A program made the position numbers. Of a DNA stretch of 64,000 nt, positions 40,211 through 46,200 are shown in pieces. The DNA comes from a plasmid: NCBI RefSeq assembly GCF_054482525.1, contig NZ_JBTHVG010000003.1, one strand, 5' to 3'. Positions within the stretch are counted from its first letter, which is position 1; each line of letters starts with the position of its first letter.

Positions 40211-43200
40211 CTATTTAAGATAGGCGCGAACCAGTTCAATCGTATCGTCAACGGATTTACTGATTTCATGGCTGTAGCTGTCATTCTGGTCAAAGGTTTC
40301 CCGTATGTGGCTCTCGAGCACCTCTGCCATAAGACCGTTAGCTGCTCCGCGAACGGCAGCTATCTGCTGAAGAATGGAACGGCATTCAGCACCATTTTCC
40401 AGCGCTCTTTCCAGAGCATCAATCTGACCCCGAATACGGCGAACACGGGTAAGGACCTTTTTTTTCTCTTCAGGAGTACTGGGCATTATTTACCTCACCA
40501 TTTTTGATTTTATATACTATAGTGGAGTATATAATTATTATCAATGCATACTCCACTACAGTATAACTAAGAATAAACATAACTACCTTTATTTGCGATA
40601 TAAATCATATATTTATATTATTTTTGGCTGTGATACTGTCGGAAGGAAAGTTACTACAAAAATGATATCTACCGATACGGGATTTGCGGCATAGGCGGTT
40701 CTGTTAAATTTCGCCAGATATTGGCTCATCATTGATGGTCAAAAAATGAGCCTAACGTACAATAATTTTCGATATCCAAACTGACCCCGTACTGAGCGTT
40801 CAGAGAACATTATCTTCCTTACATACCCATAGAACAGCTTTCTAAGAACGGTGGGCTCGCCTGAAAATTACAAATCAGCCCCTTTCACGGCATCATTTTG
40901 ATTCTTCGCGTCTGCCCCCAGTAAGATGACCGGTTTTCTGCATGACAGTGTTATTCCTAACAAACGCAACACAAAACCACGCCAGCCAGAGCAAATTTTT
41001 TCATTTGCTGCGTAAAGCCTATTGTTTTCTCTTTTAAGCTTCGCCCACTCGTTACAGAGGGTAACATCATCAAGCGCTGTTATATGCTTCGCCTCACCTT
41101 CGACGATAACGGTATGGATACCGTATGCTGTAAATCTCATACTATTTTCCAGAACCCAGTTGCGGTATTCGTCGAGTCCACCTTCGGAACCGGTAGCTCT
41201 GCGCCACATTTCAATTTGCTTGTGTGATGGGTCAAGTGTACTTGTCATTGAAGCCTCGTCTCAGCGATAACGCTTGAAATAGCCCGCTTTGGTCATCATG
41301 AAATTAGCCATCTGACTGGCGATTTGATTGTATCTTACTCATAGTGCCCTACCTATAGGTTAAAAAGGGGCATTTTCGCTTTATAGCGTGTTCAGCAGCA
41401 TCAATCCTCCCAAGAAAGGCTGGCTTATTAAGCCGGTCCATCATTTTCTGTATATCTCTCATCAATTTTTATATCCGCCCTGGAGTGCACCGTTCAAGCA
41501 CACCGATTAGGCAGATAGTCACTAGTTAACTCTTTACTAGTGACTAAATTCCATTGATATACGTGACAACGTCACGTCATGAAAGCTTATAAATGCCTAT
41601 TTTTCATACAATGGGATTTAATTAGGAGTAAATCCCATAGGCTTACATAAGGATGACAATTAAAAGCGTTAAATATCAACCAGATAGAATGATTACCCCC
41701 AATTAATGGGCTCATCACATTATTTCACTGGCTGGGGTTATTGCTGGCATATCTGAAAGTGCTAATATGTTAGTCATTAGTAATTAGTAAAGCCTTTACT
41801 AAACGCGTTTCTACGTAAATTCTATAGGTTTTATAGTGTCCTACCTTTGCTCAAATCAAAATGTTCTGACATACCAAAATGGAGTGTAAAATGACTCAAA
41901 ACCAGGGTTCTGAGCCAGTACCGGCGAGCCGGACAGGGCAGCTCATCAGCGCCCGGGATATGGCCATGCAGAAATTCGAAGAAGGGATGCGGTTAATCTC
42001 GGAAGCGTCGGAACTGTGCGGTCTCTCTCTCTTCACCAGCAGAATTATGCAGCCCAACGCATTTGGTCTTCCGTCGTCACTGGATCGCACCATCGAGGAG
42101 GGGCGTAAGGAAATTGACCGTAAAACGTGGAAAAGGCTCTTTGAAGAAACAGGTATGGACCGGTACTGGAACCATAAGCAAAAAGAAGCCTTTAACGAAT
42201 CCCTTCGTACGGATCCGCCCGTCGCTTCCCTGGAGATTGTTAAGGGAACATTACAGCATGCACTGGCTAACAGACGAGACACCCTTGCAGAAGGTTTCGT
42301 TGATGTTCTCAACAAGCTTGACCGAAGTTTCAAAAGCAATGCCAGGCAATATACAATGCCAAAAAAGCTTGTTCTTCGGGGGATTTTTCCTGGTGTGAAC
42401 GTGCTGAGGTACAACGGTTTCTCGCAGGACAATCACTTTTGTTTACGCGACTTTGAGAATATTGTATGCATCTGTTCTGATACTCCAACACCTGCAACCG
42501 GCGGTGGGCTGAGTATGGTCGACAGGCTGACGGCCATGAGAAATACAGAATTCACAGGCGAGGTCAGTGATGAGAATGGCTGGCGGTGTCGCCTGTTTGA
42601 GAATGGAAACGTTCATATTTGCATCGACAGTATCTCGCTTCTGAATGCTCTGAACGATCTTATCAGCATATATTTTGCAAACCAGCTTCCGGCCGCAGGA
42701 AAAAAATGATGATTGAAAATGATAAAGAAAAAAGCCTGAACGATGCTACCCCGCCAGAGGTGCAGAATGACATCCGCAGCGAATCCACTGAAAAATCAAA
42801 GGAAATGGGTCGTTCAAGGTACTCATCTATCGCGATGATCGATTACTTCAATGCAATCGAACGTCTGTGCAAAGAGAAAGAAATTAACCCGGAAAATATC
42901 GATCTGAGCTTCAAAGTTCACTGGCTCAGAAACGCTGTTGGCGGCTCGTTTGCAAGGTCACAGGAGATGTTCGCGGAGTACCAGAAGTATGTTAAAGAGG
43001 TTCCTGAAGAGGCCCGTTACCTGGATATACCCGATGAGGTAAAGGTTGCACTCGGCGATATTATCTCGTACATCACCTGGCACTACCGTAGAAGCTATAC
43101 CGCAATACAGAATGATAGTGTTAAAAAAGCTGAAGCACGTAGCATGCAGCTGGAGGAGGAGGTAACGCAGCTGTTACAGCGGCTTGAGCAAAGCGCTACC

Positions 43201-46200
43201 GATATGGATGAGCTGAAACTTGAGAATCAGGCACTACAGGGTCGATTAGAGATCCGGGACAGTACCGTCAAGGAGTTAGAAACAAGGCTGAATGTTGCCG
43301 AAGCAGAACTCGAAACCTGCCATCACCAGTTAGATAGCACACGGCATGAATTGAGCCTCGCACAGCAGTCAAATGACTCACTCTCCCAGCAACTGGCTGA
43401 ACGTAAAACAGAGATCGCTGGTCACCTTGAATATCAAAAAAAGCTGAACGAAGAGATCAACACGCAGCGTTCTGATAACGCCGGTCTTTCCAGACAATGC
43501 GACCAGTTAAGTCAGACTGTGTCAGATACAAAGGCAGAGAGGGACAGGTTTGAACAGGAATTGATTGCTGCACAGAACCTTTGTACTGAGCTGAAAAGTG
43601 CACTGTCCGGGAAAGAGGGTGACCTGGTGGCGGTGAATGCCGAGCTTACTGAACTCCATAAACTAAACGAGTCGCTGAGCGCCGACCTGAATAAAGTAAC
43701 TTTGGTCAGCCAGGGCTATGAAGCGGAAGTGGCTGAACAAAGCAATGAACTCAAAACGCTCCAGGCCAAAGTAATGAAGCTGGAAGCTACCCTGGAGGCG
43801 GAGAAAACAATCTCAGAATCCCTAAAAGGCACCATTGATACATTAACTGGTGCAATGGCAGGGGGAGGTACTGGAAAGTCAAAACAGCCGCGTAGCAGAA
43901 AAACATCATGATAAATGAAGCCAGGTTGATACACTTCTCTGCATCCCCTGGCACATAAGAACTTCTGCGGACATTCAGCCCGTCCGCAGGAGTTTTCGTC
44001 CTTCAGTCAACAAATGCACTACCTTTTTTGAGTCTCCACTTTCCAGAGCAGAAAACACGTTACCGATTCTACCAACAGCTTGTATCTGAGTGATAACCCC
44101 AGTCTTGTAATCATCTAGGATCCCTGACAGGAAAGCGTTCAGTTTTGTCTGTTCGCTTAGCGAAAGCATGTAGGACATTTTTTCTCCATTTTAAGCAGGT
44201 GTGTCAGTTGAAAGAGGTTTGCGTGATTCTGGAAAATGAGGCAGCACCATAGTTTCAGATGCTGTGGTCGCATCCCAGTGCCACCATCCATAAGGCCCAT
44301 ATTCACGGTTGTAATAATCTTTTTTGAGTTGCTTTCGGGCCAGATAAGCAGGAGTGGCCATACCAAATACTTCCATCGGGAACGGCTTATCGCTTTTTGT
44401 GTCGAGCAGGTAGAAGTCAGGGAACACCTCACTAATACTCGCATCATAACGCATGGGCTTAACGTACTGCCGGTGCTCTGCATCCAGCTTTTCTGCAACA
44501 ACCGCCTCATAGGAGGAGTCCAGAGGTATCCAGTTCTCGCTAACGTGCATCAGCACAATTTGATGAGCTCTTACAGAAGGGCCTCTGCCGGTTACCGCAG
44601 CTGGTGACGTCAACGCAAAGACAACTATTTTCGCCCCGGATTTCCATGCTGCGTACTCCGATGAAAATCGTTTCTTTACGCTATCCCAATGGACTTCTGA
44701 ATTGAAAAAAATCAGCGGTAGCCCCCCAAAATTCCGCAGGGGTAAAAATTTAAGTGGCTTCTCATGCTTTTCAGCATCGTAGCGAGGTAAAACTGACAGG
44801 AGCATGAGACGTTTATCACTCATCGCCTGTGATGAAAGACGCTGAATTTGCGACTGAGCGACAGGTTGTTTCGGGTCAGGTACACCAATGAATAAATGGT
44901 CACCTATGCAGGCTCTGCCGGTACGAATTTGTTTAGCGGTTTCAAGCAGACGATACCGTACCAGTGAATCGTTACGTTTCCCTGCCATTTTCGGGTACCA
45001 GACATTCAGACCAGACTCTGTCCACAAAAGACTAAGCAAGCCCAGGAGGGTCATTGAGGCCTGACCTCCTTCTGGTCGCTGAACATGGGGCAGGGGAGGC
45101 ACTTCTGATTTTTCAGGAGGATCTTTCTCTGTCATACCGATACCGAGCCTTACAGCCATATCACCTTCGGTTGTAATCCGGACCACACCACTCGCATATC
45201 CTTTCAGGCCGGTATGCCGGGCATCAAGGGAGAAGAATACACAGGAAGGATCATGCTCAATGCCCGTGTTAGCGGCTTTGACGAGAATAAAGGCATCACC
45301 GTTCGGTAAAGCACGAACATAAAGTCGCTTTTCTCCTTTTCCACGACATCCGCAGGTGATGACTGATTTTTGACCTGAGGTGTGGTGTGCCTTTTTAAGA
45401 GCCGACTGCCACCCTTTAGCAAACTCATCCTGCGTTTGAAAGTCAGGTGAATACCTTTTGACGTTTGGATCGTCGTCGTAAGCAATCATCACTGCGAATT
45501 TTTGGCTCATAGTAGTCTCCTAAACAGGAAGTTTAATATCCCAACCAGAGCAACACTTCCTGAGCGTCATACTGTTCCTTTACGCCCATGTCGCTAAAGA
45601 ATTCTTCGAAATCTGTTTCGGGAACGCAATGCCTGGACAGTTCTTGTAATGCTCGTTCTTTAGATACCGTCTCACCTTCAGCTGATTCGAAATACGTCAT
45701 GGTTGACCTCTGACATTATTACAACAATCTTAAGCATTTAAATTGATGAAGGAGCTCAGGTCAGCTGACTTCGTCGTAAAACTGCCGCAAGCGCTGGGAG
45801 GCTGCAAATTCAATTCGTGACTTCAGCAGTTTGGCGACGGCCGCAAAGACATCAACGACCACGGAGTTCCCAAACTGTCTGTAAGCCTGTGTATTGGACA
45901 CAGGGATACGGAAAACACTTTCCCCGGGTTTATCGAAGCCCATTAGCCTGCTGCATTCACGTGGCGTTAGCATGCGTGGCCGACGGTCCATGTTGTATGT
46001 GTTATGGAAATCAGTTTCTCCCAGTTCATGAGACCAGCCCCGATCAATAAGAATTTCAGATCCGTCTTTCATATAGCGGCTTGAGAGGGTTCTGGTGACA
46101 CTATTAACATTGGAAGGATCTACTAGTCCAAAACCAAAACCATTGCCTTTTGCCGCATGTTTCTTTGCATAGTTGTATAAGTACTCCCAGAGTTTAGGGG

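Follow-up and report, generated by a model that had tools for sequence, protein, structure and literature searches.

A two-gene operon of the IncHI plasmid backbone, with operator-like palindromes upstream, couples a DUF4942/YdiA gene to a gene for a KfrA/TlpA-like coiled-coil protein

Two overlapping genes and the intergenic region preceding them were analysed in a 64,000-nt stretch of plasmid contig NZ_JBTHVG010000003.1 (assembly GCF_054482525.1), which as a whole is referred to below as the window. Both genes lie on the + strand. Gene 1 (41891–42709) encodes a protein of 272 aa and has a ribosome-binding site GGAG (41881–41884) 6 nt upstream of its ATG; gene 2 (42706–43911) encodes 401 aa and has its own site AGGA (42697–42700) 5 nt upstream of ATG. 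The start codon of gene 2 (42706–42708) shares bases with the TGA of gene 1 (42707–42709), so that the junction reads ATGA. Both open reading frames and their overlap are thus located exactly where an earlier reading of the bare sequence (the sequence-only reading) had placed them, and RefSeq calls the same two coding sequences: WP_000193209, “DUF4942 domain-containing protein”, and WP_001572381, “coiled-coil domain-containing protein”. Two copies of a palindrome TAGT-N9-ACTA, which looks like an operator and is a new finding of the present analysis, are situated upstream of gene 1.

The 2.5-kb locus is 100% identical in many E. coli plasmids of 190–370 kb. It was matched by 293 E. coli records, with 340 of the 348 places being on plasmids, and a DNA search of PLSDB registered it on 1176 plasmids of Escherichia, Salmonella, Enterobacter and Klebsiella, mostly conjugative. 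The protein product of gene 2, used as a query against the same database, was found on 1431 plasmids: 1149 with identity of at least 90% (IncHI2) and 282 with identity of ~42%, the latter being of IncHI1 type (MOBH/MPF_F) and including R27. Since the matching plasmids fit the description of IncHI2 in the literature (190–370 kb, ter, mcr-1 and multidrug-resistance regions), the window is assigned to the IncHI2 plasmid backbone, and, judged by these matches, the operon is common to the backbones of IncHI1 and IncHI2. The genes usually follow in the order H-NS … DUF4942, coiled-coil gene, small open reading frame, DUF1173 (−), small open reading frame (−), Dcm-type C5 methyltransferase (−), SNase (+) and an open reading frame of ~300–326 aa (+).

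The product of gene 2 is composed of ~36 disordered N-terminal residues, a helical head of ~70–100 aa, a coiled coil of ~250 aa and a basic tail. The “globular N-terminal third” of the sequence-only reading therefore survives as the helical head, while its first ~36 residues turned out to be disordered. The head domain (residues 37–105, encoded at 42814–43020, + strand) has predicted helices at positions 41–57, 65–68, 71–78 and 82–98 and a turn with invariant L74 R75 … G79 G80; its core was modelled by AlphaFold2 (AF2) with a predicted local distance difference test score (pLDDT) of 78–90, and it may be considered as a putative DNA-binding module. The rod (residues 137–385, 43114–43860, + strand) contains no proline and is rich in L, E, A, S and Q. 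In the best register its heptad positions a and d are hydrophobic with occupancy 0.675 as compared with 0.541 ± 0.022 in shuffled sequences (~6 standard deviations), and the last 16 residues (43861–43908, + strand) bear a net charge of +5; both the heptad-rich coiled coil and the basic tail noted earlier are thereby corroborated. Two segments of the rod are conserved, namely the central one (221–261), where heptads are weakest, and the C-terminal one (361–381). The family is small: it forms 14 clusters at 90% identity, all from Enterobacterales, with 25–100% identity to the query. Its alignment shows a variable acidic N-terminus, a conserved head 37–135 with invariant Y47, F48, L74, R75, G79, G80, P100, E101, E102, R104, W125 and R128, a variable rod, the conserved segment 361–381 and the basic tail.

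Searches of Pfam, NCBIfam, PADLOC and PHROGs with gene 2 produced no matches other than coiled-coil look-alikes (SMC, lamin, crescentin, JetC, LmuB and tape-measure proteins), each of them far below its cut-off and on rod segments, and a PDB sequence search returned lamin coiled coils only, with no meaningful match for the head profile. TIGR02168, the SMC model, matched the coiled coil only, with 43.9 bits where the cut-off is 567. A long heptad-rich coiled coil is what gene 2 has in common with SMC, MukB, JetC, LmuB and Rad50, but it possesses neither an ATPase head nor a hinge, and all matches to SMC, JetC, LmuB and Rad50 are confined to the rod. The SMC-like resemblance suggested from the sequence was therefore rejected as an effect of coiled-coil composition, and the label “Chromosome partition protein Smc” attached to relatives is presumably an artefact of the same kind. 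Another label met in GenBank, “ATP/GTP-binding protein”, was rejected too: the chance pattern AGGGTGKS (residues 385–392, 43858–43881), from which it probably stems, fits the PROSITE P-loop, but it falls into the disordered tail, and only 4 of the 15 family members have it.

KfrA and TlpA combine a helix-turn-helix (HTH) head with a coiled-coil tail and are known as autoregulators acting at inverted repeats or iterons of their own promoter (PMC7821693). The predicted architecture of gene 2 is of this KfrA/TlpA-like type. It shares with KfrA of RK2, R751 and RA3 (IncP-1, IncU) the plasmid location, a size of ~340–400 aa, a small helical head, a long coiled coil and palindromic or repeated sites, which are at the promoter of the own operon for KfrA and 5′ of the own operon for gene 2. 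In contrast to KfrA, gene 2 stands second in its operon, behind DUF4942, whereas kfrA is the first gene in operons of the kfrA-kfrB-kfrC type; its operon has two operator-like sites ~260 bp apart; and its family is very narrow. TlpA of pSLT, a temperature-sensing coiled-coil autorepressor, is similar in size and coiled-coil content and shows local likeness to gene 2 at the LR..GG turn and in the next helix, but has a clear KfrA_N domain (PF11740, E = 5.6e-17) that was not detected in gene 2. The BLASTP alignment of gene 2 with this protein covers 112 aa at 26% identity (E = 0.003) and is partly made of coiled coil, with LRNAVGG-SFARSQEMFAEYQ of gene 2 placed against LRNQVGGGNPTRLRQIWDEYQ of TlpA at its centre. 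When the 14-sequence head alignment was compared by hhalign with six sequences of TlpA/KfrA_N type, residues 72–148 of gene 2 were matched to residues 28–104 of TlpA with a probability of 26% and E = 7e-4, both alignments being shallow. The resemblance of the head to HTH domains does not reach significance, and a remote homology to KfrA_N is possible. Genuine homologues of TlpA, with 77% identity over the N-terminal 128 aa and annotated as “DNA-binding protein”, were found on 214–322 kb IncFIB/MPF_I plasmids of Salmonella, e.g. at L021 1501–2616 (CP148884; here and below L numbers are our designations of compared loci), and are separate from the IncHI “tlpA-like” family.

A link to the name tlpA is provided by R27. 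According to its original annotation (Tassinari et al. 2016, Table S2) R0153 is a nuclease and R0154 an EcoRII-like cytosine methylase; then come R0155–R0157, R0158 “tlpA” and R0159 onward through R0164 (hns). In the R27 record the 406-aa homologue of gene 2 is located at 144482–145702, which is the exact start of deletion Del14 and of R0158. Because of this coincidence gene 2 is taken as the IncHI2 counterpart of R27 “tlpA”, a label dating from 2000. Together with the small helical head, the long coiled coil and the operator-like palindromes 5′ of its own operon, this label upholds the KfrA-like resemblance seen earlier. The same plasmid supplies data on partition. Deletions Del13 (R0150–R0157) and Del14 (R0158–R0167) of R27 were obtained, were viable and did not reduce stability, Del16 being the only one that did (PMC4853401). 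They remove the homologues together with their neighbours, and therefore a role in partition or stability is unlikely, at least for E. coli MG1655 in the laboratory. The Pfam search revealed no Par domains (ParA, ParB, ParM, ParR), and plasmid maintenance, one of the two functions offered by the sequence-only reading, accordingly finds no support.

Gene 1, which had been regarded as unknown, belongs to the family DUF4942 (PF13708): the Pfam score is 92.9 bits with a cut-off of 25 (E = 2.7e-26), and the match extends over residues 73–261 (42107–42673), i.e. profile positions 2–187 of 190. In PHROGs it corresponds to phrog_38825 (E = 3.8e-100). Its AF2 model has a pLDDT of 88.3; no relative of solved structure was found, the PDB sequence search gave no meaningful match, and a profile search of genome contigs with the gene 1 alignment yielded no confirmed relative. 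Among 1.84 billion representative sequences the profile search detected 832 relatives (E ≤ 1e-3), and they are built in two ways: as standalone proteins of ~250–290 aa or as proteins of 450–600 aa, with a class I methyltransferase domain behind DUF4942. Such fusions account for 42 of the 150 best of these 832 relatives, and the NPPF motif, which lies ~110 aa beyond DUF4942, is present in 40 of the 40 listed. The DUF4942 domain is common to fusions and gene 1 over its full length, but gene 1 ends 11 residues after the DUF4942 match and has no methyltransferase Pfam match and no NPPF motif. M.EcoGIX was considered as a DUF4942 methyltransferase and dismissed, since ~27 kDa, the mass implied for it by the size of its own fusion protein, is too small.

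Invariant polar residues of DUF4942 (D187, N238-G-N240, H242 and N255) could form an active site, and this is one of the observations with which a system of anti-phage or anti-plasmid defence, having the coiled-coil protein as a sensor and the DUF4942 protein as an effector, would agree. Weak PADLOC matches of gene 2 to the models of LmuB and JetC and the position of the pair beside a CBASS operon in one lineage point in the same direction. However, these matches cover coiled-coil segments only, no PADLOC family matched gene 1, no ATPase, nuclease, TIR, SIR2 or other effector domain was detected, and the enrichment of the DUF4942 family in leading regions, described below, is typical of counter-defence rather than defence. 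Hence the defence sensor, also offered by the sequence-only reading, has to be considered as very improbable. A literature search produced no functional study of either the gene 2 family or the DUF4942/YdiA family, and the function remains experimentally unassigned, as it was in that reading.

In every lineage of gene 2, down to 25% identity, a DUF4942 gene or its remnant immediately precedes it. The junction is either an ATGA overlap or a 2-nt gap wherever the two genes are complete (the window, L002, L003/L011, L010, L012/L013, L014, L015, L025 and L026). Adjacency was kept in five lineages with both genes intact, though identity falls to 50–64% for gene 1 and to 27–42% for gene 2; divergence of the two genes is correlated (r = 0.99), as is expected for linked genes, with gene 2 evolving faster. 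The usual neighbours DUF1173, Dcm and SNase are missing beside the pair in L014 and L015. Judged by this pattern, the pairing is not a matter of chance. DUF4942 relatives that have no coiled-coil partner are more distant from gene 1, with ~30% identity in L004–L007 and ~22% in IncI and IncL/M plasmids.

The intergenic region of 640 bp upstream of gene 1 (41249–41890) contains several inverted repeats. In the alignment with upstream regions of five other lineages a single block was kept in all of them, and this is a 17-bp palindrome, in the window TAGT-N9-ACTA. Its distal copy in the window (41516–41546) has the core TAGTTAACTCTTTACTA at 41523–41539 and 14-nt arms TAGTCACTAGTTAA and TTTACTAGTGACTA, which are 93% complementary. 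The proximal copy (41784–41802) is TTAGTAAAG-C-CTTTACTAA, located 106 nt 5′ of the gene 1 ATG; its core TAGTAAAGCCTTTACTA (41785–41801) is perfect and lies 262 bp downstream of the distal core. Two further palindromes are found between them: ACGTGAC-AAC-GTCACGT (41561–41577), the second conserved one, and ATGGGATTTA-N8-TAAATCCCAT (41611–41638), whose 10-nt arms are 100% complementary and which is conserved between IncHI2 and IncHI1. With up to 3 mismatches allowed, TAGTAAAGNCTTTACTA has two matches in 64 kb, as against 0.14 expected per window, and both are in this intergenic region. The window contains no other TAGT-N9-ACTA sites than these two, another 49 kb of IncHI2 plasmid sequence contains none, and two such sites in the intergenic region did not appear in any of 500 block shuffles. 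Folded as single-stranded DNA, the region gives nothing but short local hairpins, and a long single-strand promoter of Frpo type, known from leading regions, was rejected.

Copies of the palindrome were found upstream in all other gene 2 loci for which upstream sequence is available (L002, L008, L010, L012, L014/L015, L016, L025, L027 and, in the form TCAT-N9-ATGA, L003/L011); L026, truncated by the contig end, was outside the comparison. Six of these other loci have two copies, with usual spacing of 247–286 bp where two exist. Relative to the gene 1 start they are placed at −393 and −107 in L002, −391 and −106 in L008, −668 and −110 in L025, −426 and −162 in L027, while single positions are −106 in L010, −217 in L012 and −454 in L014/L015; L016 (R27) has two copies 5′ of gene 1. 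The proximal copy falls between −106 and −217 in all TAGT lineages but L014/L015, whose aligned copy is degenerate (TAGT-N9-ACCA), and 6 other loci have a distal copy between −368 and −668. The L003/L011 lineage preserves the same geometry (−203; −461 and −214) with compensating changes on both arms, and it is the only lineage with different head helices in the gene 2 protein: LRAY[HT]L in place of F[KR][VA]HWLR and, directly after the invariant GG, RI[HS]NAT.A in place of SF[ASK]R[AS]QEM. Upstream of DUF4942 genes that have no gene 2 (L004–L006, L022 and L023) the palindromes were not found, and loci with gene 1 reduced to a pseudogene (R27, p3498 and L027) retain them. Such a pattern is what one would expect for a DNA-binding protein that acts as a dimer, is sequence-specific and is encoded in cis, with gene 2 being the obvious candidate.

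The palindrome GTGAC..GTCAC at 41561–41577 behaves differently: it is also present in L002, L011 and L025, i.e. in both TAGT and TCAT lineages, and this points to one more DNA-binding factor acting in the region. This observation suits a different explanation, according to which gene 2 is a structural or scaffolding protein (a KfrA-like cytoskeletal or partition accessory), binding the gene 1 protein or not, and the palindromes are operators of a different regulator, which may be another plasmid HTH protein or the gene 1 protein. KfrA proteins were indeed proposed to form filaments and to assist partition (PMC7821693), the two conserved rod segments, one of them with weak heptads, could both bind protein, and the likeness of the head to HTH domains, as said above, is below significance. 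Nevertheless, a scaffold is hard to reconcile with the undiminished stability of R27 Del14, with the confinement of TAGT-N9-ACTA to loci having gene 2, including those with decayed gene 1, or with the simultaneous switch of palindrome type and head helix, and we consider it rather unlikely.

Based on these data one can propose, though with somewhat less than even confidence, that the locus is a self-regulated backbone operon, where gene 2 is a KfrA/TlpA-like binder of the two upstream palindromes and gene 1 is a standalone member of DUF4942/YdiA. Two chains of the gene 2 protein would dimerise via the 250-aa coiled coil, so that two small heads resembling helix-turn-helix domains may be brought to one 17-bp palindrome TAGT-N9-ACTA. 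Binding 5′ of gene 1 would repress the operon and in this way make it autoregulated, and the protein may, in addition, link the two palindromes, which are separated by 262 bp. A physical contact between the two proteins is conceivable. The gene 1 product in this scheme would be a nucleic-acid-directed accessory protein helping the plasmid in a new host.

Several observations weigh against this proposal. As a whole the head model is weak (mean pLDDT 63.8), the heads of three family members had no Pfam KfrA_N match at E ≤ 10, and the profile-profile probability relating the gene 2 head to those of KfrA and TlpA is just 26%. The promoter scan of the upstream region found no convincing sigma-70 promoter next to the palindromes, which could belong to another regulator, and the link between recognition helix and palindrome type goes back to a single evolutionary switch. 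R0158 is not among the regulated genes on the R27 array. The gene 1 homologues of R27 and p3498 are interrupted by an in-frame amber codon (CAG to TAG; 8540–8542 in L008 and 7706–8572 in L016 (R27), compare 8496–8498 in L002), while gene 2 is intact. A GTG ATG follows two codons past the stop, and the amber allele is 100.0% identical in 24 of 40 evenly sampled IncHI1-type plasmids, including pHCM1 of S. Typhi CT18. In the metagenome contig L027 the DUF4942 gene has decayed to out-of-frame fragments (1231–1595), while the gene 2 homologue (1951–3177, 408 aa) and both palindromes are intact. Since gene 1 decayed while gene 2 stayed intact, the two proteins need not act together. Finally, on the IncHI2 plasmid NZ_CP032993 no relaxase or type IV secretion system gene is annotated within ~49 kb on either side of the operon. 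Judged by annotated transfer genes, it is not near the origin of transfer (oriT), its location in the IncHI2 leading region was rejected, and the leading-region argument for gene 1 is therefore only one of analogy with its family.

This analogy comes from the distribution of the family. In PLSDB a tblastn search located DUF4942 genes on no fewer than 5000 plasmids, of which 93% are conjugative, and in Supplementary Table 1 of Samuel et al. 2024 DUF4942/YdiA ranks 24th, with 2171 members in leading regions and 1 in lagging ones. On the IncI plasmid pV404 the DUF4942 gene is ~650 bp from nikA and on the same strand as psiB, psiA and ardA; on an IncL/M plasmid of pOXA-48 type it is accompanied by ssb, an antirestriction gene and hha and lies ~6 kb from mobA-traI. 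Gene 1 has the same Pfam domain as these leading-region proteins, and all are standalone, of ~270 aa, and encoded by conjugative plasmids. However, identity to gene 1 is only ~22%, the IncI and IncL/M relatives are near transfer genes together with ssb, psiB or ardA while the IncHI copy is not, and the coiled-coil partner and palindromes are found only in the IncHI clade. By analogy with the family, gene 1 probably encodes a nucleic-acid-directed accessory protein that aids plasmid establishment in a new host.

A rival reading assumes a module of establishment or anti-defence, where both proteins act jointly on the incoming plasmid DNA or on a restriction or defence factor of the host soon after transfer, and regulation of the operon is secondary. 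Such a role would be consistent with the leading-region specificity of the family, its adjacency to ardA, psiB and ssb in IncI and IncL/M plasmids, the fusion of many relatives to amino-methyltransferases and the DNA-directed character of the IncHI neighbours (Dcm, DUF1173, SNase, phospholipase D family protein, H-NS and HNH proteins). It has to face, however, the distance to the nearest annotated transfer gene, which is 49 kb or more, short local hairpins in place of the Frpo-type promoter, truncation of gene 1 in most IncHI1 plasmids, which spread well, and the fact that no known anti-restriction or anti-CRISPR family in Pfam, NCBIfam or PHROGs matches either protein. On balance we give it a minor chance of being correct.

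IncHI plasmids are well known for their temperature sensitivity, and the idea of self-regulation may be extended in this direction. The gene 2 protein would then be a protein thermometer in the style of TlpA with a new type of DNA-binding head: below ~30 °C its coiled coil would be folded, the palindromes occupied (perhaps looped) and the operon shut, while at 37 °C loosening of the rod would allow synthesis of the DUF4942 protein. The only data pointing that way are the temperature-dependent behaviour of KfrA and TlpA (PMC7821693) and the R27 array, in which R0159 rises 2.7-fold, from 725 at 25 °C to 1932 at 37 °C. On this array R0153 and R0154 show higher values at 25 °C. The values of R0159 fit a repressor relieved by temperature and fit equally well general effects of H-NS, and we look at the thermometer as an improbable version. 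If true, it would link an uncharacterised establishment family to the temperature sensitivity of IncHI plasmids and add a new branch to the KfrA/TlpA superfamily.

As a whole, the operon looks like a system of KfrA/TlpA kind paired with a widespread uncharacterised family, and nothing in it overturns expectation. Interest in it is motivated by its carriers: plasmids of IncHI1 and IncHI2 carry mcr-1, mcr-9, tet(X4), genes of extended-spectrum beta-lactamases and the multidrug resistance of typhoid, the majority of their backbone genes have no known function, and over 1400 sequenced plasmids possess this operon. Few known gene families are as specific to leading regions as DUF4942/YdiA, the function of which is nevertheless unpublished. 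If gene 1 aids establishment in new hosts, it becomes a candidate target for limiting plasmid spread; if it has no such role, the locus is an ordinary self-regulated backbone operon. The palindromes provide a concrete and cheap experimental handle on the operon and on the question of DNA binding by the IncHI “TlpA-like” protein.

Downstream of gene 2 the sequence-only reading had placed a hairpin terminator. The hairpin is real (43958–43996, with a 15-bp stem 43958–43972/43982–43996; the 106 nt around it have a z-score of −5.1), but it has only a weak U-run on the + strand; on the − strand it is terminator-like. Being located between convergent genes, it is likely a shared bidirectional terminator. 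The convergent open reading frame of 67 aa (43975–44178, − strand) has its own stop codon within the hairpin stem, is kept in IncHI1 (WP_000323423) and gave no match in family searches. Next to it DUF1173 (439 aa), a 55-aa open reading frame and a Dcm-type C5 methyltransferase (489 aa) occupy 44191–47230 on the − strand, followed by an SNase nuclease and a 326-aa open reading frame at 47364–48817 (+ strand); both groups accompany the pair in most lineages. Their R27 homologues R0153 and R0154 are the genes with higher array values at 25 °C mentioned above. DUF1173 was predicted to be a relative of PD-(D/E)XK proteins without the catalytic signature (PMC3045609), and the DUF1173/Dcm/SNase group could constitute a restriction-modification-like or counter-restriction module.

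Some minor observations concern gene 1 itself and more distant surroundings. The only match in the Rfam search, Hammerhead_HH9 at 41904–41968 (− strand) within gene 1, is sub-threshold (22.1 bits with a gathering score of 52, E = 0.051) and was taken as chance. In the Lelliottia contig (L014 9310–15209) the CBASS-type operon adjoining the pair consists of patatin, DncV-like cyclase, E1/E2, JAB and Cap15. Genes of the CoiA family (competence nuclease-like) were registered on the IncHI2 backbone beside an ATP-dependent helicase (L001 7153–10175), and one more is located directly after a KfrA_N-type gene on the Vibrio plasmid pVIBHAR (L019 2569–2964). On the other side of the operon an frmB/frmA/frmR-like operon of formaldehyde detoxification (37731–40486, GC content 0.5–0.57) adjoins the IncHI2 backbone gene at 40868–41248. 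In another IncHI2 plasmid (L001) its place is occupied by hypothetical genes and H-NS, and its presence beside the backbone gene looks like a mosaic insertion.

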